In this document: positions 1-49,513 of the stretch, piece by piece
Numbering within the stretch: position 1 is the first letter of the stretch
Layout: every line of letters begins with the position of its first letter
NCBI GenBank assembly: GCA_963921275.4
Contig: OZ001293.3
Coordinates: forward strand, 4,160,001 to 4,224,000
Origin: an uncultured Hormoscilla sp.
GTDB taxonomy: Bacteria > Cyanobacteriota > Cyanobacteriia > Cyanobacteriales > Desertifilaceae
Length of the DNA: 64,000 nt
Direction of reading: 5' to 3'
The notes under the pieces: model-generated
Told to the model about the DNA's origin: nothing
The model's database searches: none
Seen by the model: the letters and a program-made list of their open reading frames with translations, nothing else
Position numbers and translations under genes: made by a program

Positions 1-1765
1 GATCGCCATCGTACTTCTGAACGACAATCAGATAATTGCGGGGCTCGCCGCCAACAATAGCCGAGATTTCTCGGAAAGTCTCCTGTTGAGGGCTAGCGAA
101 AAAGGAGCGGACAAACTCCTTAAACTCACTGCTAGTGCCTAAAAAACCAATGTCTTTACCAACAAAAGCTTCTGGGGGCAAGTCGAACATGTTAGCTAAA
201 TGGCGATTTACCTCTAGATAGCGTAAATCTGAACTAATCCACGAAACAATTCCCGGCACTGCTGCCAAAACCGCCTCTAACTGATCTTTAGCAGCCCGCA
301 GAGCATTTTCTGCCTGCTGGTGTTTAACAATCTCCGCCACCAATTGATCGTTTGATTCTTTCAGAGCAGCTGTCCGTTCCTGGACTTTATCTTCGAGGGC
401 GGCATTAGCTGCTTGCAGAGCCTCTTCTGCCCTCTTGCTGCTATGTCTCCCATCGCTATTCGGACTACCCGGGAGACACAGCTCCGTAATATCCTGTGCC
501 ACAAATAATGCCCTCTGTTTCCCCCCATCTGAGCGCAGTGTAGCTTCAATCTCTGATGTAGAGAAGTTAGACTGTTCAACCCCTAACCAGGGCAGAGGTT
601 TAATGGGGCGATCGCTGCTGAAAACTATTTCCACCTTTCCTGTAGGCATTATCCGCCCGATGCGGTTAGTTCTAGCAACATGGTGATTGGCAGAAATAGT
701 GACTAAGCCACTGGGAGCCAGGAAACTACTACCCAGGGCCGCCACCCCCACGCGATCGACTTCAAAGGACTCAGCTAATTCAACAGCACCCTTCCAGAGG
801 TAGATTTGGGTATATGCAGCTTCTATGGCGCTACTAATCACTCGTTTATTACCATACCGTTGCTGAAAATTATTGATAAATTTCCGATTGCTAGGTAGAT
901 CTAGGCTTGGGAAATAGCTAGCACTGACGTAAGTACCCTGGGCATATCCACCTATCTCGTTCAGTTCCGCTGCCAAGACATTACAGGCTACGATCTTAAT
1001 TTCATCTGCTGTCATGCCTGACTCAAAATACTGGCGATAGAATGCCTGATTATTTTCTCCCGATAGAGTATTGACTATCGCATCAGGTTGGGTATGTTTT
1101 ATGTGGGCGATTGTTTCAGTGAAATCAACAGCATCTTTGGGCATGTAAGCCTCGCCAACCACAGTGCCACCTTGAATAGGGAGTTGGGATTTAATGATTT
1201 TGCTAGCCCTATGGGAGAAGACATCGTCTGCACCCAGGAGGTAGAAACGTTTTCTCCGGTGCTGTAGCAGCCAGGCGATCGCCGGTTCAACTTGTTGATT
1301 GATACAGGCTCCCGTATAGAATATATTTGGGTAGCATTCTAGACCCTCATACTGTAAGGGATACCAGAGTTGAGCATTAAACTCTTCTGCCACCAGCAAC
1401 AGTCTTTTCAGACTGGCCGATGTCGAGCACCCGAAGATCGTGGTAATCTGATTTTCTGCGATTATTTTTCTGGCTTTCTGCTCAAACCGATCTGAGTCAG
1501 AAACCTCGTCTGCTATCACCGGCCCTATCTTATGACCCAGTACTCCACCGGTTTCATTGATTTCGGCGATCGCCATTAGTTGAGCTTCCAGCATGGGGGC
1601 ATCGCCCAATGCCAGTGTTTCCTGGAGAGAGTGCAAGATGGCAACGGCCACCCGCTCAACCACTGCCGGTTTTGTATAAACCCGATCGCGCGCAGCTCTG
1701 AGAGCTTCTACACCTTGATATTGCGAACTGTTAATAAATGACATAGCTTGTGCCGGGAGCATCAT
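1..1765 (-). CDS. Sensor protein (3' end beyond window): UrtA/AmiC-like amide/urea-binding domain + coiled coil + PAS-like domain
   Basis: Hand translation is open from ATG 1765 to the left edge, so it is missing from the ORF track. Motifs: AIAEINETGGVLG, IFGCSTSAS, LWYPLQYEGLE, FYTGACINQQ, IEAAYTQIYLW, then QDITE..KRAEEAL, LEDKVQERTAAL and VPGIVSWISSDLRYLEVN. The start could lie further upstream (GTG near 1894). Confidence 0.75.
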   Translation of the reverse strand, partial: MMLPAQAMSFINSSQYQGVEALRAARDRVYTKPAVVERVAVAILHSLQETLALGDAPMLEAQLMAIAEINETGGVLGHKIGPVIADEVSDSDRFEQKARKIIAENQITTIFGCSTSASLKRLLLVAEEFNAQLWYPLQYEGLECYPNIFYTGACINQQVEPAIAWLLQHRRKRFYLLGADDVFSHRASKIIKSQLPIQGGTVVGEAYMPKDAVDFTETIAHIKHTQPDAIVNTLSGENNQAFYRQYFESGMTADEIKIVACNVLAAELNEIGGYAQGTYVSASYFPSLDLPSNRKFINNFQQRYGNKRVISSAIEAAYTQIYLWKGAVELAESFEVDRVGVAALGSSFLAPSGLVTISANHHVARTNRIGRIMPTGKVEIVFSSDRPIKPLPWLGVEQSNFSTSEIEATLRSDGGKQRALFVAQDITELCLPGSPNSDGRHSSKRAEEALQAANAALEDKVQERTAALKESNDQLVAEIVKHQQAENALRAAKDQLEAVLAAVPGIVSWISSDLRYLEVNRHLANMFDLPPEAFVGKDIGFLGTSSEFKEFVRSFFASPQQETFREISAIVGGEPRNYLIVVQKYDGD

Positions 1766-2416
1766 GTACGGACTGACTCTACCTACAGACCGATGTTGCG
1801 GCTGCAAAATCGGATTATCGACAAGATGCTTCCCTGAGTGCCTGAGCTGGCGGTCTGTCCAAATGAGCGTCAAACCACCTTTGGTCACTGGCACAATTTA
1901 CTGCTATTATAGCTTGAATAGCGGTTCTTTGAGAGGTTTTTACACCCTCGATCCCCGAAAATCCGTAACTTTCACTACTTTTGTACCTATTCCTACTTAT
2001 GTTCCCTAAATTTTTTCTCCAAGAGGATGCAACCATACCCGGTCATTTTACCCATAGCTTCTTCATTCCTTAAATTCGGTCTGTTCGATATGATTTCAGG
2101 AAAGACTGAAAAATTTGGAACTTCGAGGTAGTTGAGATGAGTGCATCCAGTTTAGCAATGAGCAAAAATACTCAGATATTTAACTATCACTAGCAGGCAG
2201 TATGATTAGTCTGTCGATTGTAATGTCAATAAGTACATAGGCAAAATTATTTTTATATAATATATAGACAACGCAAGCGTTTCAGGTATGTCCGATATAA
2301 AAATAATTTTGCATAACTACTTATGATTAGTTTGCCGATTGTAATGTCAAGTTTGACTCCTTGAGAATACTCCATTGAGATCAGCACAGCGATGCAGCAG
2401 AACCTGGGGGACATCT

Positions 2417-2856
2417 TTAGGCGTTCCACTGTCTCCCAGAGATCAAGAGGTCCGCCATCTGCTTAATAGTTGATTCCACCTCTCCCGAGCCAATCTTGCA
2501 TCCCCTCGGCTTGATAATAGCCATAGTTGACAATGCGGTGGCGATGCTTAGTGACATAGGTTCTGAAGTTATCCACGAGTGGATAGTCCCAGTCGTCAAA
2601 TTCTTTGAGGGCCGCTTCTACCTTGCCAGACCAGAGGAGGGCTTTTACTCGTGCCAGTCGCTGACAAGACCCGCCGACAATTTCTACGGTTTTCCATCAA
2701 GTGATACCAATCGAGGATTTCAAGACGGAAGGTGGTCGGACCAATCAAGGCAAACAGGTTCCAAACACCATCATGGCCATCCCCGAGACTTACTAACGGA
2801 TTCGCGGCTGGGCTGCTGATTGACCCATTCAACTAGTCGAGCATTGTATACGCCAT
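2417..2856 (-). pseudogene. ISKra4-like transposase remnant (frameshifted)
   Basis: Fragments LGDGHDGVWNLF, EILDWYHLMEN and IGSGEVESTIKQ lie in different frames. Confidence 0.7.
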
Positions 2857-2877
2857 GTTTACTAAATTGTCAGATAT

Positions 2878-2968
2878 AGTACGTATTACAAAAAATCGTG
2901 CAGTTGTAATCTGACCGATAAATTACTTATTACAAGATATGTTACAACTTGTCGTGCGGAAAGTGGGT
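2878..2968. repeat. IS/MITE end remnant, homologous to 13108-13198
   Basis: Both copies share GTAATCT(G/A)ACCGATAAATTAC...TTACAACTTGTCGTGCG(G/T)AAAGTGGGT. Confidence 0.6.
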
Positions 2969-3142
2969 TACACAGTTGCAAGGCTGGATTTAGCATCCAC
3001 TCCACATCTTCAGAGAATATTTAATTTTTCTGCGGTCGTAGCTAAAACCTTGACCTTTTTTGATGTAGCAATGCAGCATGTATAGTCATTTGCTACATAA
3101 ATCTAGTCTAACTAACGGTCTAGAAGTCCCTCGCCACCCTCA

Positions 3143-4120
3143 CTAACTAATCGTAACATTTTGGCCTACCACCGCTCTCACTCTATAGATAGGTCTGTCC
3201 TGAGATTCGTGGTAAGTCCGCATCAACAGTTCCCCCAGCAAACCGAAGCAAAACAGCTGCACTCCGGTCACTAGGAGTACCACCGCCAGAATCAGCAGTG
3301 GTCTGCCGCCGATCTCCTGTCCTAATGCTAGCTTGAGGACCGTCAGATATGCCCCGAGGACCACTCCCAACAGCAGGGAGAGTAAGCCCATCGAGCCAAA
3401 GATATGCATGGGGCGAGTAAGAAACTTTTTCATAAACCAAATGGTTAATAAATCCATCAACACCCGGAAGGTCCGTCCCAGGCCATACTTACTGCTGCCA
3501 TGGCGGCGGGCGTGGTGACGAACTGGTAACTCGGCAATTCTCGCTCCTTCAATAAATGCTAGGGCGGGTAAAAATCTGTGCAACTCTCCATAGAGATTCA
3601 TGTCCGCCACCAGTTCCTCACGGTAAGCTTTGAGGGAACAACCATAGTCGTGCAGCTTTACCCCAGTGACTTTCCCGATCAGGAAGTTGGCAATTTGGGA
3701 AGGAAGTAGGCGGGTGAGGGCAGCATCCTGCCTGTTTTGACGCCAACCGCTCACTAGGTCATACCCCTCGGCCAACTTGTTGACAAGCAGGGGAATATCA
3801 GCAGGATCGTTCTGTAAGTCCCCATCTAAGGAGACAATGACTTGGCCTTGGGCATATTTGAACCCAGCGGCCATTGCCGCTGTTTGACCGTAGTTACGGC
3901 GTAGCAGGATGCCTTTGAGGTTTGGGGTCTTCTCTGCCAGTTGGGTGAGTAAGGCGGTTGACCCATCGGTTGAGCCGTCATCGACGCAGATGATTTCGTA
4001 ACTTAGCTGAGTTTCTCTCAAGCTCAGGCCGATCGCCTCTATCAGGTGGGGCAAGCTCTCCACTTCATTGTAAATTGGCACAACCACTGATAATTCTGGC
4101 TTGACAGGGGGTTCTGGCAT
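3143..4120 (-). CDS. Glycosyltransferase family 2 (polyprenol-phosphate GT, ArnC/DPM1-like)
   Basis: SVVVPIYNE, VDDGSTD, RNYGQTAA, LDGDLQNDP, two C-terminal TM helices. Confidence 0.9.
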   Translation of the reverse strand: MPEPPVKPELSVVVPIYNEVESLPHLIEAIGLSLRETQLSYEIICVDDGSTDGSTALLTQLAEKTPNLKGILLRRNYGQTAAMAAGFKYAQGQVIVSLDGDLQNDPADIPLLVNKLAEGYDLVSGWRQNRQDAALTRLLPSQIANFLIGKVTGVKLHDYGCSLKAYREELVADMNLYGELHRFLPALAFIEGARIAELPVRHHARRHGSSKYGLGRTFRVLMDLLTIWFMKKFLTRPMHIFGSMGLLSLLLGVVLGAYLTVLKLALGQEIGGRPLLILAVVLLVTGVQLFCFGLLGELLMRTYHESQDRPIYRVRAVVGQNVTIS

Positions 4121-4138
4121 GGGGACTGTTCGTTATAT

Positions 4139-5149: not shown

Positions 5150-5189
5150 TAGATTGTACTGCTACTCTATTTCCGATATTAAGCTTGGG

Positions 5190-7382: not shown

Positions 7383-7821
7383 GCGTATCCCAAGTATTAC
7401 TCCGGGCATTTGCTTCTTAGGCCATCTCTCCCGCTCGCGGCTTGCGCTTCACATCTGACTGGTCCTAACGGACAACACACGAGGGGTTACTTCGTTCCCT
7501 GGTCTCCGGAGCGCGATGCCTTTAGGTTCCTACTATACCCCAGTAGCTATTTGAGTACGTTGTTAGCCAGGAGTGATAACTAACACTAGCTACAGTTACT
7601 TTTGTGCTGGCGCATAAAGCCTTATTTCGCCAGTTTTGGTTGACGAGGTTTATATAGGTTCGCTTGCTCTAACCTTGGACATCTGAGAGCGCGGAGTTAC
7701 CAGCCGTAGCTGCTAGCTATCCTACATTTGAGTCCTCGCTTAGCACCACGGTGATGTTATTCCGCAGCACCGAGGACCGGTGTTACCCCCGTACTTGGGG
7801 AGGGGGAATTTAACCCCCATG
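7383..7821 (-). mobile_element. Internal fragment (domain I-III) of the ORF-less group II intron family
   Basis: Colinear homology with 60620-61101 and 56920-57420. EBS1 loop CACTCC (7570-7575). Confidence 0.85.
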
Positions 7822-8460
7822 GTACTGGCATCAAGAGTTGCCGACCTTTATTCATTACTCCTTTAAGCCAGCGCAGACCGCTCTTGAGATAGCTGATACC
7901 TCGTAGCAGATGGGGATCTACCTCTCGTCGTAGACCAACAAGAAGAACAGCCATGCCTTGGGTCGTGGCGTAAAGCATGGCTACGGCAGTAACGGGTGTA
8001 GAGCCGCGATTGGTGCTGGGGCTGAGCGAATGCGGGAATCTTCAAGTTCAAACGCTCCCGACTTGCTATCCAAAAACAGTTCTTCTACCTGAAACCGCAA
8101 ACCGTATTGCCATAGAGTTTGTAAGCTAGGGGGCTCGGAGGTGATAAGCCCAGGGCTCCTTGACTCCTTTAACATTAGCTAATACAAGATGGAGCGCGAT
8201 GCTTCCCATCAAGCCAGAGACCAACATTGCGCTTCTTCGACCGCTTCCCCTTTAGGTGGCCACAGATAGCTGACTTCAATGGGATAACGACTCCGGCCAT
8301 GTAGCAATACATCACAGGGCAATCCCAGGCAGTAGTGCCAACAAAAGGCTTGTAACTAACCCATCGATGTCTCCTGTGTGCCGAGTCCCCTGGGACGAAA
8401 GCAAGGAGCAGAGATATCGAAAGATCGTGGTTAGCTTTGCCCCGGTCTGCTAACAACATC
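7822..8460 (-). pseudogene. IS4-like DDE transposase remnant
   Basis: LLADRG, YGLRFQVEELFLDSKSGAFELEDSR and RGISYLK..LRWLKG split over several frames. Confidence 0.75.
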
Positions 8461-11291: not shown

Positions 11292-11500
11292 TCCCGTTCC
11301 GACAGGCCATACCGATCACTTCGGGTGCATCGAAATGTTGGCTTTCGATATGCTCTGTGCGCACTACTCGCACTGCACATCGCACATCGCTGCCATATTC
11401 ACTCTTTTGCCCAGAGCCCAGAAACCAGGTTTTGCTGGAAAAACCTGGTTTCTTAATTCATGATGCTTCCCTCACTTCTCTTTTATCGCAAAATTATCTA

Positions 11501-15091: not shown

Positions 15092-16372
15092 CTAAGGAAT
15101 AATTTCCGTGACCACTCTCCCACCACTCTTACCGCTTTTAACCACAATATTTTGCTCTGGGAGTCTCCCGAAAGCTTTAGCACCCTTTAAGTTCAATGGT
15201 GGATCGACCTGACGATAATTAACATTCCCTTCCGCTGCCATTTCTTCCGAGGCAATGTACCAGGTAATTTTATCTGCCTCCAGTTGAGATTGATTGCTTT
15301 CCCCAATGCCCCGCACGTTACCAGTCAAAGACGCAATTTGCTTTTGTAAGTCTACCTGTCCCTTGTTACCTGTGAGGGTAACTTGCTGCTGAGGATAATC
15401 TATCTTAACTAATTGGTCTGATGCGATCGTTTCTGTTGCTAAATTCCAGGTCATTGACTCACTTGTCACATGCACGGGTGGTTCTGATAGGGTCAGTTTA
15501 GCATCTTGCTTCAGGGTGAGAGTATTGGCTTTCAGATCCACTAAGGAGGCATTGGCAACTGCTTTACCTGTCACTTTCTCCCCCTCATAGCGATCGATCT
15601 GGATGGGCCGATCGCCTATCACCTGCTCGTCCTGCATCTGCCAGATCAATTTCTCAGTTTTCATCTGTAACTTGGGAGACTTCGTCGTCGCGGACACCTG
15701 GCCGAGTAACTCCATGCGGCGATCGCGGCTCAAAACTCTGGCCTCAGCAGCGGATGCTGACACTTGCGGATGAGTACCAGTCAAATTATTGCGGACAATT
15801 AAAATATCTTCCTGAGGACTCCACTCCAACTCCTCGCCCCGCAATATAGCTCCATCTGCAACCGCCGTAGCCATAATTTCTCCTTTCAGGAATATTTTTT
15901 TCCCATCCTGATGAATTTCTCCTTTCTGCGACATCACCTGAAACGCTAACTTCCCATCCTGATAAAGTTCACTATTGGAATGATGAACAATGGCAATTTT
16001 CTCATCTCGGCTGTAAGTAGCCTCTTTGGCCTCCACTTTCCACAAAAGACGCCCCCGAACATCCACTTGCTCAAGAGTAACATCATTAAAAATCAAGCTG
16101 TTTTCCAGTTCTTGTGAGTCAGAACCATCCTCAGTCAACTTGTTCCCTGTCTGCTTTTCACCTGCACAACCACCTACCAGCAGCGCCATCAAAACCAAAG
16201 ACAGCGCTACAGTCCGCGTCCCGTTGGAGAAAAGATGCCGTATATAGCCCGCGCAGGCGGGCTTTGTGTTTGTAGCCCTACCCCCTCGTTCCCACGGCTC
16301 TGCCTGGGAACGGGTGGGGATGGGGGTGGGGATGACAATCTTCGGAATTTGCCAATTAGAAAAGTTCAGCAT
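15092..16372 (-). CDS. lptC: LPS export protein LptC (cyanobacterial long form)
   Basis: Lipoprotein-like LLVGGC, VTLEQ..G.LLWKVEA and repeated OstA-like beta-jellyroll segments. The true start is probably downstream because the 5' part overlaps REP-like repeats. Confidence 0.8.
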   Translation of the reverse strand: MLNFSNWQIPKIVIPTPIPTRSQAEPWERGGRATNTKPACAGYIRHLFSNGTRTVALSLVLMALLVGGCAGEKQTGNKLTEDGSDSQELENSLIFNDVTLEQVDVRGRLLWKVEAKEATYSRDEKIAIVHHSNSELYQDGKLAFQVMSQKGEIHQDGKKIFLKGEIMATAVADGAILRGEELEWSPQEDILIVRNNLTGTHPQVSASAAEARVLSRDRRMELLGQVSATTKSPKLQMKTEKLIWQMQDEQVIGDRPIQIDRYEGEKVTGKAVANASLVDLKANTLTLKQDAKLTLSEPPVHVTSESMTWNLATETIASDQLVKIDYPQQQVTLTGNKGQVDLQKQIASLTGNVRGIGESNQSQLEADKITWYIASEEMAAEGNVNYRQVDPPLNLKGAKAFGRLPEQNIVVKSGKSGGRVVTEIIP

Positions 16373-17139: not shown

Positions 17140-17175
17140 TTGTTAAATTTATTTGACTTTGACGCTTTGCCTGTC

Positions 17176-17455
17176 AGTCGGTGTTTCTTGGGAGCGCGAC
17201 GCGCATTACCCAGGAGACACCTTCGATGTGCTCTACGCGCGCTACCCGCACTGCTTAATGTGCTCTGCTGCTGTGTCTCCTGGGAGCGCTACTCGCACAA
17301 AAGGAGACACAGCGCGCGGTTGAGCACTGCGCGGCTGTGTCCTTGACACGCATGAGAAGATAGTATCTCATGCGTGTCAAGGGACACAGGGAGCACATTA
17401 ATCGCACATCGCCGAGACATCGTACTCGCACTACCCCTCGCACATCGAAGCAGCA
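17176..17455. repeat. Cluster of nested small palindromic elements
   Basis: GGTGTTTCTTGGG..CCCAGGAGACACC; CGATGTGC..GCACATCG enclosing GCTGTGTCTCC..GGAGACACAGC and CTGTGTCCTTGACACGCATGAG..CTCATGCGTGTCAAGGGACACAG. Confidence 0.85.
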
Positions 17456-19122
17456 TTCACAAGTTCCAAACGCTCAAACGCTGGCTGAGCTTTGCCTAAC
17501 TTCTGGTTGGCCGGTAATGCTCCCCAGCTGGCATGAGTATCAAAGGTCGATGTCTCCGGAGTAGTGCGAGTATGATGTCCCCCGGGTTTCGCCGTGCGTC
17601 CGGGGGACATCAAGCTCTCCGGAGACATCGAAGCCGACAAGATTGAACTTTGCCGATCGAAGTCGATGCTAAAACCCAGTTGCTGGTAGATAGCACTGCT
17701 GACACGGGGAATGACTGGCGAGAGCAGATAGGCGGCCAATCGCACCGATTCTAAAACTGCGTAGAGCACCTGTTCGGTAGCTGACTGTTTTCCCTCTTTG
17801 TACAGCTGCCAAGGGGCCTGCTCGTCAATGTACTTATTGCCAGCTTGTACCAAAGCCATAATTTCTGCGCAGGCTTTACTAAATGCTAGCACTTCGTAGG
17901 CAGCACAAACCCGATCGCCCAATCCTGCACCTATCTGTTGCAACAGGTTGTCTTCAGGAATTTCCGCAAGCTCCGGCACAGTGGAGCCGCAGTATTTCTT
18001 GGCCATGCCCAAGGTGCGATTCAGCAAATTGCCCAAATCATTTGCCAAATCCGCATTCAGGATATTGACAAACCTGGTTTCCTTAAAATCCCCATCCTTG
18101 CCAAATTCAATTTCCTTCATAAAGTAGTAACGAACGGCATCAGCTCCATAAGCATTGACGAGAGCGATCGGATCTACAGTATTCCCCAAGCTTTTGCCCA
18201 TTTTCATGCCATCTTTGGTTAAAAAGCCATGTCCAAATACGCGCTCTGGTACTGGCAGACCCGCTGACATCAGCATTGCTGGCCAGTAAACTGCATGAAA
18301 GCGTAAGATATCCTTGCCAATCAAATGCAAGTTAATGGGCCACCATTTGGCTAAGGCATTTGCCAAAGTCGGCGGCTCCTCTGGCTCCAGGAGTGCCGTT
18401 ACATATCCTAACAAAGCGTCAAACCAGACATAGATAGTATGATCTGAATCTACTGGCACCGGGAATCCCCAGTCGAGATTCACCCGCGAGATGGAAAAAT
18501 CTTGCAGTCCCTGCCTGACAAAGCCGAGCACTTCGTTCCGGCGGCTCTCTGGCTGGATAAAATCCGGTCGTTCTTCGTAAAGGGCTTCTAGCTGCTGTTG
18601 GTACTTGGAGAGTCGGAAAAAGTAGTTCTGTTCGTTTCGCCACTCAGTTTGTACGTTCTGGTGGATCGGACAGCGGTTATCTGAAGCGCGATCGCGTTCT
18701 TCTTTGAATTCTTCGCAGGATACGCAGTACCAGCCCTGTTGACGTCCTAAGTAAATGTCTCCTTTTTCCCACACCAAATTAAAGAATTCTTTAACAATTG
18801 CCTCGTGGCCAGGGGCTGTGGTGCGGCTGAAGCGATCGTACTGGATGTTCAGCAACTGCCAAATGGCCTCAAAGCCAGTGACAATTTGGTCGCAATGCTC
18901 TTGGGGCGATCGGCCCTTAGACTGAGCTGTGCGCTGAATTTTCTGTCCATGTTCATCCGTCCCTGTAATCATCAGCACCTCGCCGCCCCGCAACCGCTGG
19001 TAGCGAGCCCACACATCTGCCGCCATCGTCGTATAGGCACTACCGATATGAGGCAAATCATTGACATAATAAAGAGGCGTCGTAACAGCAAATCTCCGTT
19101 TTTCTCGATCGGTATAATTCAT
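17431..19122 (-). CDS. metG: Methionine--tRNA ligase, with an in-frame palindromic insertion near the C-terminus
   Basis: TTPLYYVN..PHIGSAY (HIGH), GTDEHGQKI, YVWFDAL, GKDILRFHAVYWP, KMGKS (KMSKS). Confidence 0.97.
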   Translation of the reverse strand: MNYTDREKRRFAVTTPLYYVNDLPHIGSAYTTMAADVWARYQRLRGGEVLMITGTDEHGQKIQRTAQSKGRSPQEHCDQIVTGFEAIWQLLNIQYDRFSRTTAPGHEAIVKEFFNLVWEKGDIYLGRQQGWYCVSCEEFKEERDRASDNRCPIHQNVQTEWRNEQNYFFRLSKYQQQLEALYEERPDFIQPESRRNEVLGFVRQGLQDFSISRVNLDWGFPVPVDSDHTIYVWFDALLGYVTALLEPEEPPTLANALAKWWPINLHLIGKDILRFHAVYWPAMLMSAGLPVPERVFGHGFLTKDGMKMGKSLGNTVDPIALVNAYGADAVRYYFMKEIEFGKDGDFKETRFVNILNADLANDLGNLLNRTLGMAKKYCGSTVPELAEIPEDNLLQQIGAGLGDRVCAAYEVLAFSKACAEIMALVQAGNKYIDEQAPWQLYKEGKQSATEQVLYAVLESVRLAAYLLSPVIPRVSSAIYQQLGFSIDFDRQSSILSASMSPESLMSPGRTAKPGGHHTRTTPETSTFDTHASWGALPANQKLGKAQPAFERLELVNAASMCEG

Positions 19123-19468: not shown

Positions 19469-20380
19469 ATGGTGATCGATTCAAAATTCAAAATTCAAAA
19501 TTCTTGCATTGACAAATGCCAAATGCCAAACCTGAAAAATTGTCTTCGTTTTCTCACCCCTTGCCAACCCAGACCCGAATATCCCCTGTTTGTCTTCCTG
19601 CCAGGAATGGATGGCACCGGGAGGTTGTTACACAGACAAATACCTAGCTTACAGAAAACCTTTGATATTCGCTGTCTGGCCATCCCACCTGATGACCTAA
19701 CTGACTGGGATGCTATGGCCAAACAGGTAATTGCCCTAATTGAAGCCGAGTTGAAACCACGATGTGCGATGCGCGCGCTACCCGCACTGCGCATCGCACA
19801 TCGAAGACGTGCAGTTTATCTATGTGGCGAATCCTTTGGCGGTTGCTTAGCTCAAAAAGTGATAATGCACGCCAAAGGACTAATAGAGCGACTGATTCTC
19901 ATCAATCCCGCCTCATCCTTTAAATTATATCCCTGGATGAGTTTAGGAGAGCCAATTACTCGCGCATTGCCCTCAGCCCTCTACAGAGTCTCTAAACTGG
20001 GGATACTGCCCTTTTTAGCTGACTGGGGACGGGTTGCCGACTGGGAAGTCCGCGCCCTGTGGTCAGCTATCCACTCTATACCGCAAGCAACCTTCATTTG
20101 GCGTTTGTCTTTGCTCGGAGAGTTTCATATCAGTGAAACCCAGCTGAGTTGCATCACTCAACCCACGCTGCTTCTTGCTAGTGGTGCAGACAGACTCCTT
20201 CCTTCTGTCACAGAAGCTCAACGCCTCAACAGCTGCCTCCCTAAGGCCCAGATGGTAGTGCTGTCTGATAGCTGTCACGCCTGTCTATTGGAAAGGTCGG
20301 TTGACCTCTATCAAATTCTCCAAACACATAACTTCTTGTCTTCTGGAAATGCCGTTTCCCTAGTTAGAGGAGCGTCATAA
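19469..20380 (+). CDS. Alpha/beta hydrolase, with an in-frame 42-nt palindrome insertion
   Basis: FLPGMDGTG, GESFGG nucleophile elbow, D.LLPS, HACLLE. The start may be Met at 19523. Confidence 0.9.
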   Translation: MVIDSKFKIQNSCIDKCQMPNLKNCLRFLTPCQPRPEYPLFVFLPGMDGTGRLLHRQIPSLQKTFDIRCLAIPPDDLTDWDAMAKQVIALIEAELKPRCAMRALPALRIAHRRRAVYLCGESFGGCLAQKVIMHAKGLIERLILINPASSFKLYPWMSLGEPITRALPSALYRVSKLGILPFLADWGRVADWEVRALWSAIHSIPQATFIWRLSLLGEFHISETQLSCITQPTLLLASGADRLLPSVTEAQRLNSCLPKAQMVVLSDSCHACLLERSVDLYQILQTHNFLSSGNAVSLVRGAS

Positions 20381-22940: not shown

Positions 22941-23289
22941 GCAATTCAAAATTCAAAATTCCAAATTAAAAATTGGGAAGGCCATTTTTAATTTGGATCT
23001 CAGCTTTTCTCGTTATGCAATTTAAATGGACGACAGCTTAGGACAGGCAACCAAGATCTGTCAGATGCATGAATCAATTACAACCAGCAACAAAATCCTC
23101 TCCGGAAGTGTTCTGTTCTCGCCAGTTGCTCGACTGGATGCGATAGCAACAGATCGGCTTCGCCCTGACGACCTATCAAACCTCGATGTGCGATTAATGT
23201 GCTCCGCGCAGTGCTTTTAGCGCGCGCAGAGCACATTGCTCAACCGCGCGCTGTGTCTCCTGGGTAGTGCGATTTGAACCAGTTGCTTT

Positions 23290-23344
23290 CTGCGGGGCTT
23301 CTGCGGGGCTTCTGCGGGGCTTCTGCGGGGCTTCTGCGGGGCTT
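23290..23344 (+). repeat. 11-mer tandem repeat (CTGCGGGGCTT) x5
   Basis: Direct reading of the sequence. Confidence 0.9.
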
Positions 23345-23736: not shown

Positions 23737-23738
23737 TT

Positions 23739-28145: not shown

Positions 28146-28290
28146 CGATGTGCAATTAATGTGCTCCGCGCAGTGCGAGTAGCGCGCTGTGTCTCCTGGG
28201 TAGTGCAACTAGCGCGAGGTATCTCGCCCCAGGAGACACAGCAGCAGAGTAAATTAAGCAGTGCGGGTAGCGCGCGCATCGCACATCGAA
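28146..28290. repeat. Nested small palindromic elements
   Basis: CGATGTGC...GCACATCG encloses GCTGTGTCTCCTGGG...CCCAGGAGACACAGC; three copies of the core motif. Confidence 0.85.
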
Positions 28291-28364
28291 GGGAACTCAG
28301 AAACCTGGTTTTGGCAAAAACCGGGTTTCTTAATTATTGCAGATCGAGATCCTGATGAGGTTAA

Positions 28365-36359: not shown

Positions 36360-36837
36360 TTCTACTCACTGCGTTGACTGCCCCAAGCCTGCCCCCTCGT
36401 CAAGTCCAGACCTGTATATTCAACGCATGTTGATTACCTGGGGGGCTTCGCCCTCCAATTACTCCTAACAACCGCCCGACAAGGTTTTGGCGATCGCCAA
36501 TCTCTTTTCTGCCATCACCAAAAAGCGAGTAGGGCGCTCAATTAGCCAACTCACAAATCAACTCGCCCATTCGATGTCTCCCGGACGCACGGCGAAAACC
36601 CGGGAGACATCGCAAGTTGGTACCTAAGATTGACAAATATATTTAAGGTGCTATAATAAAAATGATATCATCCCGCTTTGATCGATAAAGCGAGTAGGGC
36701 GCTCAATTAGCCCAGCAAGTTGGTACTTATTTGTTAATGTGAGTTATGGAGTGAGGTGGCAAAGAGTGAGGCTGACAAGACCCTAACGTTCCCGTTCTCC
36801 CATTATTCACATAAATGATGTGCTGGGTATCAGGCCC

Positions 36838-37315: not shown

Positions 37316-37875
37316 ATATCATGTCCGATATATAGCCAAAAGATAAAAAATTTATCACTTGTAGGTTGGGTCTGGAGCACGAAACCCAACCGCGATGTCT
37401 CCCCGATACCTCTGGGCGATGGCCTTCATCCCAGAGGTATCGAAGGTTTTCGCCGTGCGTCCGGGAGACATCGAAAGTAAGCCCTGTTGGGTTTCGCTAG
37501 CGAAGCGTGCTCTACCCAACAAACGCAAGAGATCTTTTTTATTATGGTTAATCATCCGGACATAATATAAGTCTTGCAACCAAGATGCGATGCGCGAGGG
37601 GTAGTGCGATCGCGCAGGCGGAGTTTGCATGTGCGCGCAGCGCATGTAGCGCGAGTGCATCGAAGATCGCCCCCGCTAAATCTGATAATAGACATCTCCA
37701 AAAACACTGGGGTAGGTGGTGGCATAAGGGTTTGAGAACCTTTTCTGGAGATGTCTAATGAAGGGCCCAATAGGGACTCCAGGGTTCGTCGAAAGAATTA
37801 TTGTTGGTCAAGTATGCCCACCTCAGTCGTGGTATAATAGAGAGAATTAACCAAAATATCAAACAGAGTCAACCC

Positions 37876-44069: not shown

Positions 44070-44195
44070 TATCAGTTACCAGTTACCAGTTACCAGTTTA
44101 GCGTTTACTGCGATTTCTCGTTACCAGACTCGATCTGGTAATAAGATTTGGGAGGATCCCGTCTCCTTATGAGTTGATCGAACTCAGATATAAAT

Positions 44196-44640: not shown

Positions 44641-44923
44641 CGCTGAATTCCAAAACAATTCGAGATTTTAAATTTTGCCTATATATTGAGAAAATTTCGT
44701 GAAGGAACTGAACAAGACGCAACAACCGAAAAAAATATGGCTGCGCCCCCAGCGCAGCGCTATCGGCTGGGCGGGCCATTGTTTCCCGTCATCTTGACAG
44801 GGCTAGTTTCCGGCTGTGTCCCCCCCTCGTTCCCACGGCTCTGCCTGGGAACGTGCTCAACCGCGCTCCCGAGGGACACAGAAGTGGTCGCGAAGCTTGC
44901 ATTGAGATGCACCCTCAAGTAAC

Positions 44924-45856: not shown

Positions 45857-45938
45857 AATTTTACCTCCAAACAATCAAATCTCACTTGACAAGGGACAAA
45901 AACTGCAAATAGGTACTCTAATGGGAATTCTCCAACTA

Positions 45939-46679
45939 GGGCGTGTCATCAATTAAGCCATATTACAGCTGCCGCGAGGTAGATGGCACCCAAGAAATTG
46001 CGAGCCGTTTTATCGTAGCGTGTCGCCAGAGCCCTGTATTGCTTGAGTTTTTGGAATAGATTTTCAATTAGATGCCGCCACTTGTACATTTCTTCATCGT
46101 ATTCTCTGTGTTCTGTGCGGTTACTTTTTGGAGGAATGACAGCCATCCAATCCGCCTCTTTCAGGCGCTCGAGCACACGTTGTTCCGCATCATAGGCTTT
46201 ATCTGCAAGCAGCGCGCCAATCTCACCGATTTTATCCAATAGCACGTCAGCGCCTTTCCCGTCGTGGGCTTGGCCAGGGGTAAGATGAAATCCTGTGGGA
46301 TTGCCTTGGGCAATCGCAAGTGGCATGAATCTTTGTCGATAGTCCCCCTTTACTACGGCCTATGGCTTGGGTTTCGCACGTATCTGAGGGTGTTTTTTTT
46401 TGCACCCGCACGCTCGTTGATGGGCACGCAGGATGGTGGCATCAATCGCGGCGTATTCGTTATCGGCGTCTGAGGCCAAGACATCGAATACCTGCTTCCA
46501 AACTCCCTTTTCAGACCAACGGGTATGGCGGGTATGAACAACCCGAAAATCCCCGTTCCCACTGGTCGTCTCGCAAGCCATAGCGTCTCATATCATGCCC
46601 TCTTGATTGTTATTGCTGGATAAGGACTCCATACCGTATCCATCTATTTCTGTCAAGCAATTTGATTGATGACACACCC
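45939..46679 (-). mobile_element. IS5-family element (transposase in several frames), TA duplication
   Basis: TIRs GGGCGTGTCATCAAT / ATTGATGACACACCC; IDATILRAHQ, ADKAYD, YKWRHLIENLFQKLKQYRALATRYDK. Confidence 0.88.
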
Positions 46680-47415
46680 TAGAATCGATCATTTTTTCTA
46701 AGATAGCGGGTTCCAGTTCAGTACCATCAGCAAAGGCATAGACTCCAAAAGCCGGATCTCGGTGTTTCACCCGACCGTTAATGCCAATCAGCAAACCCCT
46801 AGCATTCAATATCGGACCGCCACTCATTCCCACCACAATATCATTTGTATAGCCCAAACGATAGCCCCGATCGAGAGATTTAGACAGTAACAGGGACACC
46901 TCCCCTTTCGTAAACTGAAACGCCTCAATTCCCAACTCAAAGGTAGTTCTCACAGTGCCGGGATGATACATGGGAAAACCGGCAGCATATACCCGTTCTC
47001 CCACGATCGCGGCTTCCGTACTAACTTCCGCTATCGGATAGTCCGCCCCACTGCTAAACTGAGCGATCGCCATATCAGTATTTCCCAGTCGTATAGGCGA
47101 TCGGGCCAATTCTTACCGTTGACCATCATGGGCGATCAGCGTATACTCCTCGCTAAAAGCAACCACGTGCCAACTGGTCACTACCGTATAAACTTGCCCC
47201 GATCTCCCGATGATCGCCCCCGAACCAGAAGCCCTCGGCGTCAGAATGCGAACCGTCACCCCTTGGCTTAAACGTTTTATCTGAGCAGATGTCATATCCC
47301 CAGCCTGGGAAACTAGAAGCACGGGTTGAGCGATCGTCTCCTCGAAGAAGTATAATTGGGTAAAGGCGATCGCCACTAAGACAGCATAGCGGAAGTAACT
47401 CCTGCTTGGCTCCAT
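46680..47415 (-). pseudogene. Trypsin-like serine protease with in-frame TAA (47113-47115); C-terminus cut by IS5
   Basis: SGSGAII, TSWHVV, DMAIAQF, GMSGGPILNARGLLIGING; the frame resumes SWRIPI beyond the IS. Confidence 0.8.
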
Positions 47416-47429
47416 CTAAAACTCCTCCC

Positions 47430-48071
47430 TACCTGCGGGAATATTTGGTTTTCTCTCTGGCTGTACGATCGTCTCAGACCTAGTATGCGTCTCGAGGGAG
47501 ACGTCATACTCCAGGCGCTGACATCGATATAAGGTCTTTGCCTAACCGTACTTTCTCACAGAGAAGGCGTCCCCGCTGTCCTTTCCGCCAAGCCAAAAAT
47601 TTTTCAGCGCCCCAATGGGGTCTTGACCGGGTTTGAGCGTATATATCAACTTTTCGCAGCCTCCATTTACCCGACTAGCCGTACAAATTTAGTATTTTGG
47701 GCGTTGCACAACCACGGGATGATAGGGGTTGTTAATTGTTAATTGTTGACAGCTACTTAAAATAGTCAGAAGTTGTCATATATAGATTTATAAACTCATG
47801 AACAATTTTCAATTTTCCTCGTTCCCTGGGGACCGCCTGGGAACACGCTGCGCTAATTTTCAACCATTGGCTGGTATCATCCCCAAAATGTGCAACGCCG
47901 TATTTTGGTAAACTGTTTTAGGTATACTTGATGAGGTATCGCAATAGAATCCCGATTGACCCGGTGCCGGTTGGCTGTGCTGGCTTTACTAGCACTCACT
48001 ACCCCAAGCACCGTCAAGGAAGCGATCGCGATCGCCCCTTTCTTCAGCAATGATGTTAATTTCATCACCAA
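47430..48071 (-). pseudogene. COP23-like protein remnants
   Basis: Signal-peptide fragment and ICTASRVNGGCEKLIYTLKPGQDP fragment. Confidence 0.55.
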
Positions 48072-48198
48072 ACTCCTTATTTTACCTAAATTATTTGCTT
48101 CTTCCCTATTAGCAAAAGAAACAGAAAGGCTACCGTGTCAATACTAAAATATGCAACAATATCACCCAATTACCTTTTCGACAATCACTTGACAAACC

Positions 48199-48711
48199 AT
48201 GAAACGTTCTTTATCTGCTGTGGCGATCGCCTCCTGTCTCGTAACAGGGGTGCCAGTCATCAGCTATGCCAATGGACTTCCGGGATTAACCATATTTGGC
48301 GGTCCCGAGCGGCAATACCTGTTACCCTTCCGGTTAGATTTCGGGGGTCAACCGGATCAGTGGGACCGTTACCGACTGAGAATTCCCGCCAGTAAACTGA
48401 AGCTAGCAGCTGCTCAGTTTTCCGTTTCCTATCCCGAGCGCTTCAACGGCAAATTCAACCCCGAAGAAATTCAAGTCCGGGTGAAAAGGAAGCCCATTCC
48501 TTTACAGGAGGTGATTTGGGACCAGGAAAATAACCTGATCGAAATTTATCCCGAAACTCCAGTACCGGCGGGAACTCAAGTGGAGCTAGTGTTCTCCAAC
48601 GTCATCAACCCCACCTTTGGCATCTACTACTTCAAATGTCTCATCCTCACTCCCGGTGATATCCCCCTGCCTCGCTATATCGGCACCTGGGATTTGAGCA
48701 TTAATAGATAG
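48199..48711 (+). CDS. DUF2808 domain protein
   Basis: Signal peptide, DRYRLRIP, NVINP.FG.YYF, YIGTW.L; usual position upstream of cyanobacterial rpmH. Confidence 0.8.
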   Translation: MKRSLSAVAIASCLVTGVPVISYANGLPGLTIFGGPERQYLLPFRLDFGGQPDQWDRYRLRIPASKLKLAAAQFSVSYPERFNGKFNPEEIQVRVKRKPIPLQEVIWDQENNLIEIYPETPVPAGTQVELVFSNVINPTFGIYYFKCLILTPGDIPLPRYIGTWDLSINR

Positions 48712-48777
48712 GCGCAACGAGGGTGGTATAATTAGGAATTGTGACTTTTTGACGAGGTTGACGAGGCTGGAAGTATT

Positions 48778-48915
48778 ATGACTAAACGCACCTTGGGTGG
48801 GACGACACGCAAACGCAAGCGCACCTCGGGTTTTCGCGCTCGTATGCGGATCAAAATTGGCCGCCGAACGATCAATGCTCGCAGAAGAAAGGGGCGTCAT
48901 CGCCTCAGCGTCTAA
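48778..48915 (+). CDS. rpmH: 50S ribosomal protein L34
   Basis: Hand translation [45 protein letters not shown] (45 aa, below the ORF-track cutoff). Confidence 0.97.
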
Positions 48916-48931
48916 TGATTCCGTAAGCGCA

Positions 48932-49513
48932 GTGTTACCGAAAGCCCATAGACTCAGATACTGGCGAGACTTTGAAGCAGTTTATCAGAGTCGAAGAAGT
49001 CGTCGCACCCCTCATCTGACTTTAAGAGCTTTGCCTCCGGTGTCCCCGGGTGAGGTGTCTCCTGGTGCTGCATCTCCTGGTGAGGTTTCTTCTGGGAGCT
49101 TGATGTCCGGGGGACATCATAGTCGCACTACCGAGGAGAAACTTCGCGCTAGTCGGACTACCCTGGAGACCACAGCGAGACGGTCTACTCGCACAAAAGA
49201 GGGGACACCGCCCCAACCTCAGCACCAGTCGCAGGTCGATGCGCCGGTTGCAGCAGGGTCGCAGCCAACGCGGGTTGGTATTGTTGTGGGCAGGAAAGTC
49301 AGTAAAAAAGCTACGATCCGCAATCGGATCAAGCGGCGACTGCGGGCCTGTATGCGCCAGTTGTTGCCGAGTTTATCACCTGGTTGGCAGCTGGTAGTAA
49401 TGGCCCGACCAGCAGCAGGGGAGTGCGATTCTGCTCAATTTCTGCGAGAATTAGAGCAGATGTTGGCAGAAGCGGAGGTACTCAATGGGGATTCGAGAGG
49501 ACGTGTATTATGA
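48932..49513 (+). CDS. rnpA: Ribonuclease P protein component with an in-frame insertion of about 57 aa
   Basis: LPKAHRLR...DFEAVY, RVGIVVGRKVSKKATIRNRIKRRLR (RNR motif); follows rpmH. Confidence 0.93.
   Translation: MLPKAHRLRYWRDFEAVYQSRRSRRTPHLTLRALPPVSPGEVSPGAASPGEVSSGSLMSGGHHSRTTEEKLRASRTTLETTARRSTRTKEGTPPQPQHQSQVDAPVAAGSQPTRVGIVVGRKVSKKATIRNRIKRRLRACMRQLLPSLSPGWQLVVMARPAAGECDSAQFLRELEQMLAEAEVLNGDSRGRVL

Follow-up and report, generated by a model that had tools for sequence, protein, structure and literature searches.

The 64-kb stretch of DNA analysed here (the window) carries copies of a family of short hairpins that are probably non-autonomous palindromic micro-elements, restricted to one genus and mobilised in trans through the folded hairpin, most likely at the DNA level. 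A census of the window's genome (G000), with a loop at most 4 mismatches from the consensus and a stem of at least 9 bp, confirms that the repeat family is real and non-random, yielding 242 hairpins compared to 1 with a reversed-motif control. The genome holds a further ~260 stemless loop pieces, which are mostly outer shells of nested copies. Genome-wide, the word TCGCACTACC occurs 349 times against a naive expectation of 12, GCGCTACTCGCAC 108 times (expectation 0.2) and GGACGCACGGCGAAA 43 times (expectation 0.0), and the family loops rank among the genome's commonest in an unbiased scan for perfect hairpins.

The family is restricted to one genus, comprising a sponge-symbiont cyanobacterium and its close relatives. 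The loop pattern was found in all five genomes of the window genome's genus and in 0 of 26 other relatives; similarly, the covariance model found matches in 5 of 5 genus genomes and in none of 36 genomes from 29 other genera. Viral contigs gave no covariance-model matches, and only 1 of the 10 matches in metagenomes had a real hairpin context. The interpretation given in the preliminary description of this stretch, a mobile system with structure and a core motif conserved and arms left free, is supported overall, and each of its testable parts held.

Anatomy of the hairpin unit

A family-1 unit consists of a conserved 16-nt loop, AGCGCTAnTCGCACTA, enclosed by a 14-bp stem (14+16+14 = 44 nt). 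A T or TT commonly precedes the unit and the usual insert is 45 nt, which corrects the ~42 nt first given for it. The loop starts with the palindrome AGCGCT and is perfect in half of the 242 census copies. The core motif first reported is real, but it is not the loop alone: it extends from the loop into the beginning of the 3' arm. The stem, with consensus CGRTGTCYCCnGRG, is free in sequence yet self-complementary, and its edge is sharp: positions 1-14 have a Watson-Crick frequency of 0.89-0.98, which falls to 0.48 at position 15 and to ~0.25 further out.

The claims that the arms vary between copies while remaining complementary, and that structure and loop are what is conserved, were confirmed by an arm census and by covariation. 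There are 179 arm-pair types among the 242 copies. Standard pairs make up 94.4% of the stem compared to 76.1% after shuffling, 12 of the 14 pairs change on both sides, and compensated changes are frequent in family 1, G:C to C:G included. The covariation score is 0.554 versus 0.198, with 0 of 500 shuffles reaching 0.554, in a set in which the 15 specified loop positions are invariant by construction; sliding the pairing register as a control left 37-50% of positions paired. In 11 orthologous pairs from G000 and G004, arm differences in place are single unpaired changes only.

Copies in the window

All 15 positions at which core copies had been reported carry a recognisable core (TCGCAC/GTGCGA and its neighbours) on either strand. 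The 17-mer GCGCTAsTCGCACTACC is seldom intact in the window, with 3 sites at two or fewer mismatches (0.00 expected from 100 shuffles), and the exact canonical loop is not found within the window. A covariance-model search of the kind proposed in the preliminary description, with 28 genome copies as input, filters off and a cut-off of E ≤5e-5, recovered 10 distinct hairpins in the window; the remaining reported positions correspond either to half-units or to outer shells around nested copies.

Some of these copies lie in coding sequence. A degenerate family-1 hairpin, GCTGCTATGTCTCCC / ATCGCTATTCGGACTA / CCCGGGAGACACAGC, at 437..482 (+; model match 433-489, 30.6 bits, E 2.8e-6) is read through in frame in a real gene, the minus-strand ORF 2..1894, which encodes a periplasmic-binding domain (Pfam Peripla_BP_5/6) and then a sensor part. 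This copy is found in G000, G002 and G003, and the G001 segment differs. The window's best match (19752-19811, 42.9 bits, E 9.7e-10) is to the 44-nt unit CGATGTGCGATGCGC / GCGCTACCCGCACT / GCGCATCGCACATCG at 19760..19803 (+), within an alpha/beta-hydrolase ORF (19469..20380, Pfam). Here 54 nt in G000 correspond to 9 nt in G001, a net insertion of 45 nt, and in the alignment G002 and G003 keep the outer arms with a different interior. At 17547..17631 (-), within the C-terminal tail of a methionyl-tRNA synthetase ORF (17431..19122, minus strand; Pfam tRNA-synt_1g/Anticodon_3), a family-1 unit that is canonical on the minus strand holds a family-2 hairpin (loop GGACGCACGGCGAAAC) inside its loop, between AGC(T) and TAC (dG -35.4; match 17565-17620). 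A decayed nested cluster with three cores, one of them a CACAAAAG variant, occupies 49084..49215 (+; weak match 49093-49127) in the upstream part of ORF 48797..49513, of which the C-terminal part is RNase P protein (Pfam Ribonuclease_P, residues 155-226).

Some further copies lie between genes. A degenerate 44-nt unit with CGATATGC..GCACATCG-type arms at 11346..11389 (+; match 11338-11397, 37.0 bits, E 4.4e-8; repeat family D14) separates the divergent genes CCB2/CCB4 and Peptidase_S13 (Pfam), and a composite of nested and partial units at 23184..23290 (-; match 23187-23246 on the minus strand, 26.2 bits; repeat family D15 and fold) is found between an LmeA-like gene and a chromate-transporter gene (Pfam). 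Between convergent genes, a three-level nest at 28146..28292 (-; match 28179-28249 on the minus strand, 37.2 bits; dG -41.9) has an inner unit, 28186-28242, with a further small hairpin in its loop. Among the remaining copies, a second three-level nest, at 17224..17447 (+), was delineated from repeat families D14 and D15 and from its fold. It has outer arms CGATGTGC..GCACATCG, middle arms TTAATGTGCTC..GAGCACATTAA and an inner unit at 17270-17313 (GCTGTGTCTCC..GGAGACACAGC, CACAAAAG variant; match 17263-17320, 41.2 bits). The hairpin GGTGTTTCTTGGG / AGCGCGACGCGCATTA / CCCAGGAGACACC at 17180..17221 (+; match 17171-17230, 38.8 bits, and fold) has a variant loop. At 37588..37664 (-; from the sequence, coordinates hand-counted) a family-1 unit has a GCGCTGCGCGCAC-type micro-element occupying the centre of its loop; the genome contains GCGCTGCGCGCA 243 times.

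Relatives with a GGACGCACGGCGAAA loop had been placed at 17573, 36571 and 37393, of which the first two stand. The solo family-2 hairpin TTCGATGTCTCCCGG / ACGCACGGCGAAAAC / CCGGGAGACATCG at 36570..36612 (+; match 36564-36620, 31.7 bits) has the same outer arm as family 1, and the family-2 loop has 22+8 perfect-hairpin occurrences genome-wide. The third needs correcting: the hairpin at 37393..37442 (+; match 37396-37450, 26.3 bits) starts with the family arm CGATGTCTCC but has another palindromic interior, and the family-2 loop is represented by a half-unit after it.

Insertion, reading frame and nesting

Comparison of orthologous sites shows that units have, on an evolutionary scale, recently been copied into new places in the chromosome, mostly as 45-nt modules. 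These dated insertions, for which empty orthologous sites exist, bear out the earlier view of the elements as mobile and non-autonomous; at 44-45 nt, a unit cannot encode anything. Three copies are confined to G000, and one nested copy is confined to G004. The copy at C1:4588617-60 is matched by empty sites in all four congeners and that at C1:1938632-75 by empty sites in G001, G003 and G004, with no G002 sequence recovered. The third, in topA, is a clean 45-nt (15-codon) insertion that is absent from G001-G004 and from 4 of 4 aligned genomes of other genera. No regular target-site duplication was found at the compared insertions, and no target motif emerged from their junctions, which are irregular, with an overlap of 0-4 nt (CCAG at topA, GAC at C1:4588617, TTTC at C1:282118), 0-4 nt of target replaced and some adjacent substitutions. 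Empty sites with 2-4 unrelated bases could be excisions, sites in general being polarised only where an outgroup is present.

In a systematic survey of 1.59 Mb of G004 against G000, of which 0.94 Mb aligned, we found 23 polymorphic family sites. Their net length is 45 nt at 8 sites, 44 nt and 48 nt at 3 sites each and 78 nt at 2, with 42, 60, 75, 87, 108, 112 and 139 nt occurring once each. The proposal that unit length preserves the reading frame agrees with the mode of 45 nt and with the 18 of 23 polymorphic sites that differ by a multiple of 3 (p 1.3e-5). Outside long ORFs, multiples of 3 account for 8 of 13 family sites, and among the other indels for 32 of 69 (Fisher p 0.37), and the rule of three could perhaps be a survival filter alone.

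Units land both between and inside genes, and some insertions into essential genes are in frame. Many copies are intergenic, and 53 of the 242 are set 150 nt or more inside ORFs of 600 nt or longer; 41 of these 53 are in the sense orientation and 29 are in one frame (about SMSPGSATRTTQETS; p 2.5e-8 against one fifth). The host genes include topA and genes for an SNF2 helicase, an ARC6-like division protein and an NTP-transferase/PGM fusion, and the in-gene copies persist where they are translated as a 15-residue hydrophilic peptide.

Further units, and other mini-elements as well, land preferentially in the loop itself, and this results in 'Russian-doll' hairpins. Other mini-elements are inserted in the family-1 loop to form nested structures, many of the nested copies lying after the AGC of AGCGCT. 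The loop centre is replaced or filled in 6 of the 11 orthologous G000/G004 pairs, and one unit has an IS630-like element in its loop.

Known systems and the mode of mobilisation

The preliminary description did not recognise the family; searches returned no matching SDR/REP or Rfam family and no matching paper, with SDRs compared by description only. The closest analogues are the Rickettsia palindromic elements (RPEs), the Nostoc SDRs and the REPs. As summarised in PMC10969869 from Ogata et al. (2000), RPEs are palindromic, ~100-150 bp long and in frame in housekeeping genes. As far as that account goes, the family described here resembles them in being palindromic and non-coding, with many in-frame copies in unrelated housekeeping genes of a host-associated bacterium, read as an extra peptide and without a known mobilising enzyme. 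However, family-1 units measure only 44-45 nt, and whereas sequence defines the RPE families, the present family has free arms and a fixed loop only. In addition, its copies are as a rule nested in the loop, the host phylum is different, and there is no sequence similarity. The Nostoc SDRs are 21-27 nt long and, in the account of PMC5861425, reported only in Nostocaceae. SDR1-8 of Nostoc punctiforme and relatives are likewise described as cyanobacterial, too small to encode anything and sharing a secondary structure with compensatory changes, and as having copies within copies (PMC5861425, PMC4390886). The described insertion of SDR5 between bases 3 and 4 of HIP1 is similar to the precise mid-palindrome insertion seen here after the AGC of AGCGCT. 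The present units differ in their 44-45 nt, long stem, large conserved loop and other lineage, a distinction drawn from descriptions and not from sequences.

REP/REPIN sequences, as presented by Bertels and Rainey (2011, PMC3116915), are also short hairpins with hundreds of copies, and REPs act single-stranded; the reverse strand of the family-1 loop contains GTAG, as in REPs. REPs are, in the same account, extragenic, adjoin their RAYT gene and propagate as inverted pairs, whereas the units here are single hairpins that are often inside genes. The HUH/RAYT partner suggested earlier was not found adjoining these hairpins; the only good Y1_Tnp (RAYT-like) gene of G000 has another REP-like array on its flanks. 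A search for 0.4-6 kb of DNA enclosed by family arms gave only housekeeping genes and the one IS inserted in a loop. Classical MITEs (Correia, Nezha, IS630-derived) share terminal inverted repeats, a short non-coding interior, non-autonomy and strain-variable presence with our family, but they differ from it in that family 1 lacks both a target-site duplication and a cognate insertion sequence sharing its ends, and has a conserved interior instead of conserved ends. An IS630-type MITE with TA flanks is present in the same genomes (survey sites 13 and 14) and is quite unlike family 1.

The irregular junctions are explained by imprecise events linked to repair or replication no less well than by an enzyme, and they bear on two other readings. 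With their short overlaps and small target losses, they resemble target-primed reverse transcription, and group II intron copies lie within the same window. In this reading, an RNA copy might be turned into DNA at nicks by a resident reverse transcriptase (one of the many group II intron enzymes, or a retron-like one). RNA intermediates were reportedly proposed for the Nostoc small dispersed repeats by Elhai et al. in 2008. We consider retro-insertion unlikely, since RNA that folds on one strand would be expected to leave a strand asymmetry, and G.T and A.C stem mismatches are about equal (62 versus 76, hand-summed). Moreover, chromosomal orientation is balanced (122 plus, 120 minus), there is no poly-A or other 3' tail, and none of the RNA runs contained more than a minor fraction of the region. 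It is similarly doubtful that the units are enzyme-free by-products of replication or repair. In that case hairpin DNA that has been extruded, or hairpin oligonucleotides that have been displaced, would be captured through microhomology at breaks or stalled forks, and being single-stranded would be enough to make the loops hot spots. The lack of target duplication, the 0-4 nt overlaps, the small target replacements with nearby substitutions, and the polymorphism of several unrelated hairpin families in the same genomes would all be consistent with such capture. However, hundreds of copies from five genomes keep a near-invariant 16-nt loop despite drifting stems, which argues for sequence-specific recognition; in addition, Ku was not found in G000 (genome 96.7% complete), and the modal insert is a precise whole 45-nt unit, not a random fragment.

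The strong conservation of the loop, its initial palindrome AGCGCT and the many copies between genes might instead point to functional host sequences, amplified because they are useful as protein-binding sites, terminators, RNA-stability hairpins or recombination sites. We regard this as very improbable: the 53 copies deep in long ORFs, topA included, the variable presence at orthologous sites between close genomes, and the decay and mutual nesting of copies all speak against it, as do the lack of a T run after the stem and of an Rfam family match.

If mobilisation occurs in trans, as we favour, a host- or element-encoded enzyme would act on the folded hairpin, recognising its loop sequence together with the shape of the stem, and would most likely do so on DNA. 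Five of the 20 arm haplotypes common to different contexts carry the same mismatch, and mismatches are thus inherited; perfect stems are found in 15 of 20 shared haplotypes compared to 45 of 152 singletons (Fisher p 2e-4). Both arms would be copied, and well-paired copies would be the most successful in spreading. Selection on which copies survive and found new lineages may then account for the 15-codon length and for the benign reading frame.

A constant loop on variable, paired stems

The preliminary description listed 15 core positions in the window, and we find a TCGCAC-type core or its complement recognisable at all 15, flanked by inverted arms of the claimed types. The exact 17-mer offered there as the conserved core is nonrandom (0 expected by chance) but too strict, with three window sites at ≤2 mismatches; a loop pattern and a covariance model (R1) took its place as search query. 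Genome-wide, the genome of the window (G000; 7.03 Mb in 7 contigs, 47% G+C, with GCGATCGC abundant) contains 349 copies of TCGCACTACC where ∼12 are expected, 108 of GCGCTACTCGCAC where 0.2 are expected and 43 of GGACGCACGGCGAAA where the expectation is 0.0. A motif-free scan for perfect hairpins (9-bp stem seed, loops ≤30 nt) returned 146 family hairpins with 65 distinct 12-nt arms, and the 16-nt loops AGCGCTAnTCGCACTA (n = C in 31, T in 20, A in 20 and G in 15) were among the commonest. In a census that required ≤4 mismatches in the loop and an adjoining stem of ≥9 bp with ≤2 mismatches, G000 has 242 units of this family (family 1), compared to a single unit with the reversed motif as control. 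Loop-like sites without a stem (≤2 mismatches) number 262 in G000 versus 15 in the control, and most of the 262 are outer shells of nested copies. A separate contig of the assembly, C3 (31,420 nt), has 17.6% G+C compared to 47% for the chromosome; it could be foreign, or derive from a different organism in the sample.

The anatomy of the unit is sharp. In the census, the frequency of Watson-Crick pairing is 0.89–0.98 at stem positions 1–14, falls to 0.48 at position 15 and is ∼0.25 beyond; thus, the unit is 14+16+14 = 44 nt. It is usually preceded on the 5′ side by T or TT, and by CTT at 56 of 224 copies. Several stem positions exist in more than one paired state: position 4 is T:A in 116 copies, G:C in 57 and C:G in 55, position 7 is T:A in 156 and C:G in 79, and position 12 is A:T in 119 and G:C in 97. 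We measured covariation in an alignment of 28 of the first 30 loci, from which L012 (no left arm) and L016 (identical to L010) were omitted. Here 94.4% of cells are paired compared to 76.1% in shuffles, both sides have changed at 12 of the 14 stem pairs, and the covariation score of 0.554 (versus 0.198) was equalled by none of 500 shuffles. As a control for register, shifting the partner by 1–3 columns reduced pairing to 37–50%. The position-wise counts and the covariation both bear out the earlier claim that the stems vary yet remain paired. Mismatches of the G.T type (62) and of the A.C type (76; both summed by hand) are nearly equal, and thus there is no sign of folding of one strand only, as would be expected of an RNA.

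The history of the stems is recorded in their haplotypes. Among 179 arm-pair haplotypes, 20 recur in two or more distinct flank contexts, and perfect pairing is far more frequent in these shared haplotypes (15 of 20) than in those present as a single copy (45 of 152; Fisher P = 2e-4). Copies with good pairing left more descendants, which fits a process that needs a folded stem. In five of the 20 shared haplotypes an identical mismatch is kept across contexts, and therefore both arms were copied, which argues against the strict form of a fold-back model in which only one arm is copied, its partner being made anew. Similarly, we saw no correction of arms in place, since the arms of orthologous pairs (11 units common to G000 and the congener G004) differ by single unpaired changes alone, as their flanks do. 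Interior exchange between nested units, or mismatch repair in a folded intermediate, are possible sources of the frequent double changes, some of which are transversions.

The family is confined to one genus among the genomes searched. We counted 139 matches to the loop pattern in G000, 25, 45, 44 and 64 in the four congeners (G001–G004), and 0 in 26 genomes from the same family or order. The covariance model matches all five genomes of the genus and none of 36 genomes from 29 other genera; its counts per genome are lower bounds, as at most 133 candidates were scored in each. When one genome per prokaryotic species was scanned, every record with multiple hits among the matches listed bore the title Hormoscilla sp.; each of the other records listed had a single hit, as expected by chance given 15 fixed bases. 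Viral contigs had 0 matches to the family. Metagenome contigs had 10, with arms present in one; we rejected the other nine as chance matches within coding DNA.

Copies in the window and in genes

With filters off, R1 identifies 10 distinct hairpins in the window at E ≤5e-5, and folds of the flanking DNA show units that stand alone, degenerate ones, and nests two or three levels deep. Coding copies lie at 437–482 in a periplasmic-binding/sensor gene and at 19760–19803 in an alpha/beta-hydrolase gene, and a coding nest occupies 17547–17631 in the C-terminal tail of the methionyl-tRNA synthetase ORF. Assembled sequencing contigs aligned to the window end at hairpin clusters. Some contigs skip 44–45 nt at 17569–17614, with flanks of ∼21 letters, so that other copies may be their source; the RNA runs contained 0.07–0.11 of sampled words.

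The window holds other repeats as well. The sensor gene (window 380–560) carries in G002 and G003 an extra 51-nt hairpin (TTTTTCTGAGGTTTGTAGTGAGG...CCTCACTACAAACCTCAGT), 17 codons in frame, that is missing from G000. At its gathering score, Rfam has no match on the window hairpins; the two Rfam matches in the window, both off the hairpins, are group II intron domains V/VI at 56538–56615 and 60308–60384 (both minus strand, 42–44 bits). Related repeats lie at 7512–7833, 57147–57431 and 60790–61113, and repeats of 60–220 nt are shared within the window (families D4, D6, D12, D18 and D20); together these represent several copies of group II introns. An 11-nt tandem repeat of ∼18 copies spans 54949–55255, and 72-nt repeats at 61277–64000 lie within a long ORF that runs past the window end.

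Genome-wide, half of the units (121 of 242) lie within a stop-to-stop ORF of ≥360 nt, compared to 67% of random positions, and 53 of the 242 are ≥150 nt inside an ORF of ≥600 nt. Sense orientation accounts for 41 of these 53, and 29 are read in one common frame. Because the consensus is free of stops in five of the six frames, 29 of 53 far exceeds one fifth (P = 2.5e-8). In the favoured frame, T plus the 44-nt unit encodes a hydrophilic peptide, approximately S-M/V-S-P-G-S-A-x-R-T-T-Q-E-T-S, while the seldom-used frames give hydrophobic peptides. Selection on tolerated insertions would produce such a frame preference. Host genes checked with Pfam encode topoisomerase I, a SNF2-type helicase, an ARC6-like division protein and a nucleotidyl-transferase/phosphomutase fusion.

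Insertions, their lengths and the loop as a landing site

Family units are mobile. The mobility claimed in the preliminary description, and the empty sites that it called for, are seen in copies that are present in G000 only. The 44-nt unit at C1:4588617-4588660 is filled in G000 only, and the sequence is uninterrupted in all four congeners; similarly, the unit at C1:1938632-1938675 is filled in G000 only and the site is empty in three congeners. The clearest case is topA, which in G000 has 45 additional bases immediately 3′ of the AHEAIR codons. This insert is missing from all four congeners and from each of the four genomes of other genera that were aligned, and the ORF that contains it remains open (910 aa) and is the sole topA-like match in G000 at E ≤1e-30. 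The filled site reads ATTCGT-CCAGTGTCTCCTGAG-AGCGCTAGTCGCACTA-CTCAGGAGACACCG-CCAGCAGG and the empty one ATTCGT-CCAGCAGG, with four bases, CCAG, common to insert and target. In the window, the copy at 19760–19803 corresponds to a net gain of 45 nt relative to G001 (54 nt versus 9 nt). Insertion has also occurred into the family itself: in G004 only, a 46–47-nt unit occupies the loop of another, older unit, which stands alone in G000, G002 and G003.

The junctions are irregular and without regular duplication, showing either an overlap of 0–4 bases that varies in sequence or the replacement of 2–4 target bases, whereas a transposase-derived MITE has a target-site duplication of fixed length. At some sites, substitutions adjoin the insert. 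A candidate target rule, by which copies insert 5′ of sequence like the 3′ half of the loop (TAnTCGCAC), fitted three sites and failed in a larger set. No replication-strand bias is obvious (122 plus versus 120 minus copies), and GC skew is weak.

We surveyed insert lengths in 1,593,699 nt of G004 against G000, of which 940,697 nt aligned in 788 pieces that were kept. A site was counted if the gap between neighbouring pieces contained a family unit on one side of the comparison and ≤12 nt on the other, and two sites of unrelated 100-nt MITEs that passed the loose loop filter were left out. The 23 polymorphic sites have net lengths of 45 (8 sites), 44 (3), 48 (3), 42, 60, 75, 78 (2), 87, 108, 112 and 139 nt. 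Thus 18 of the 23 lengths are divisible by three (P = 1.3e-5 versus one third), as are those of 12 of the 15 single units of 42–48 nt. Across a wider size range, 10 of 11 family sites have lengths divisible by three within ORFs of ≥600 nt that stay open in both genomes; outside such ORFs, the proportion is 8 of 13 for the family versus 32 of 69 for other indels (Fisher P = 0.37). The 45-nt mode belongs to the unit itself. The wider rule of three may be intrinsic or may result from filtering by survival; the frame-preserving length proposed in the preliminary description holds for the 45-nt mode and for the 18 of 23 sites, but the excess outside ORFs is not significant.

Two other groups of indels were seen in the same comparison. 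A second hairpin family, TCGTGTCCAGAGACGCCCACCC...GGGTGGGCGCTCTCGGACACGA, of 72–74 nt with a 38-nt short form, is polymorphic between G000 and G004 at at least seven sites (for example C1:820245, 2319512, 4344836 and 4439637), with net lengths of 72, 72, 72, 96, 87, 93 and 39 nt, mostly multiples of three. Well-aligned DNA of the two genomes also contains twelve indels of 20–27 nt, many of the GCGCTGCGCGCAC/GCAGCGTGGCGC type, whose 12-mer has 243 copies in the genome; the motif also occurs at window 37588–37664. By size and behaviour these look like Nostoc-type small dispersed repeats (SDRs), in a lineage without reported SDRs.

In six of the 11 units common to G000 and G004, the loop centre has changed as a block: two loops are filled by a 22–26-nt GTTCCCAGGC...GGGAAC hairpin, one, at a nested site, has this hairpin in place of a larger part, two have the centre swapped for other short sequences, and one has changed from CACTACCC to CACAAAAG, a variant that recurs genome-wide. 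At two sites, congeners keep the outermost arm bases while the palindromic interiors are wholly different. An IS630-like element of ∼2.7 kb, with an ORF containing HTH_32/HTH_29 domains, sits in a family-1 loop of G000 (C1:5277775-5280555; L305) with TAGTA on either side. Thus, judging by the block-altered and filled loops, the loop is a hot spot in general, and the tip is where nests grow. In the window, a small GTTCCCAGGC..GCCTGGGAAC hairpin repeat (D13) is present at 16281–16312 and 44822–44853; this hairpin fills family-1 loop centres in G004 that are unfilled in G000.

Mobilisation and relation to known elements

The preliminary description suggested a search for a RAYT/IS200-type HUH, IS110 or other transposase flanked by the same hairpins, and no RAYT/IS200 partner was found beside them. 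In a PF01797 search that covered G000–G004, the one good Y1 (IS200/RAYT-type) gene of G000, at C1:241795-242139, adjoins another array: its flanks (L205) have hairpins of GCCCGCGCAGGCGGGC with a 78-nt period and no family-1 unit. In the 400 nt downstream of the Y1_Tnp gene, the array consists of six tandem 78-nt repeats with GCCCGCGCAGGCGGGC hairpins, and the gene and these repeats are probably the true REP/RAYT pair of G000. Similarly, we found no autonomous element with family arms among the G000 arm pairs 0.4–6 kb apart that were examined. This search gave 29 candidate pairs, and the contents were inspected for the three with 14/14 complementary arms; they comprised SAICAR synthetase, KARI, GATase, Uma2, or the IS630-like element in a loop, which is unrelated and has its own ends. 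Ku, a component of NHEJ, was not detected in G000; group II introns are present, and thus so are reverse transcriptases.

These results bear on the element classes to which family 1 might belong. REPs, like family 1, are hairpin repeats (PMC3116915). In REP/REPIN-RAYT systems, however, a single-copy Y1 gene is flanked by the same repeat, while the Y1 gene of G000 is flanked by another; moreover, these repeats are extragenic and move as inverted pairs, whereas 53 of the 242 family-1 units lie deep in long ORFs and the dated inserts are single hairpins of 44–48 nt. A transposase-derived MITE has a full-length, transposase-coding relative with the same terminal inverted repeats, and none was found for family 1 among the arm pairs inspected in G000. 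The ends of IS200/IS605 elements (PATEs) have two different subterminal hairpins, compared to one hairpin per family-1 unit, and insert 3′ of a fixed motif of four or five nucleotides, whereas the 5′ flank of family 1 is only T-rich and is part of the insert at dated sites. In behaviour, family 1 matches Rickettsia palindromic elements (RPEs), which also colonise genes in frame (PMC10969869); family 1 inserts in frame in many unrelated genes whose ORFs stay open. RPEs differ in being ∼100–150 bp long, with a conserved peptide, in Rickettsia, while family 1 is 44–45 nt and is found in one cyanobacterial genus among the genomes searched. Thus, family 1 fails the defining features of REP/RAYT systems and of transposase-derived MITEs, and its size, sequence and host exclude it from the RPEs.

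Family 1 also resembles the Nostoc SDRs. Those of Elhai et al. (2008) are reported to be of a small size class, to nest and to show compensatory changes. Units of family 1 likewise insert into one another and share a fold with compensatory changes; SDR1–8 are 21–27 nt long, which its 44–45 nt does not fit. SDR5 inserts between bases 3 and 4 of HIP1, according to one paper (PMC4390886), and another places no SDR-like repeat outside the Nostocaceae (PMC5861425). We found no description of family 1 in the literature searched, and looking up terms in the main text of two Hormoscilla genome papers gave no mention of such repeats.

We conclude that these palindromic micro-elements form a new family restricted to one genus, with SDRs compared by description. 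The division of labour in family 1 is unusual: the loop is constant, the stem is free to vary but stays paired, and the module spans 15 codons. The preliminary description had not recognised the family, and this stands as regards REP and Rfam, where no matching family was found, and as regards empty sites, which exist; for SDRs it extends to descriptions only. Its observation is confirmed, and its interpretation as a mobile micro-element, putatively recognised by structure and core, is upheld in the parts that could be tested. A speculative scenario for mobilisation, and on balance an unlikely one, is that a folded hairpin with the specific loop is the sole requirement in cis and a resident loop the preferred landing pad, such that lineages fitted to a 15-codon length and an innocuous peptide could colonise even essential genes such as topA; the route would be enzymatic or linked to replication, and family 1 would be one family of a wider, undescribed DNA-moving process.

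Very small palindromic repeats that have settled in genes are known from a few lineages, such as the RPEs of Rickettsia and the SDRs of Nostoc, and to our knowledge how such repeats move has been an open question for more than 20 years. Family 1 is an unusually clean system for this question, with hundreds of copies, five related genomes and dated insertions, as well as a sharp anatomy, a precise 15-codon insert and a loop that receives new insertions. Short-read contigs end at hairpin clusters, which matters for assembly and annotation of these natural-product-rich genomes. In the uncultured sponge symbiont itself, family 1 remodels conserved proteins, among them topoisomerase I, methionyl-tRNA synthetase and a cell-division protein.
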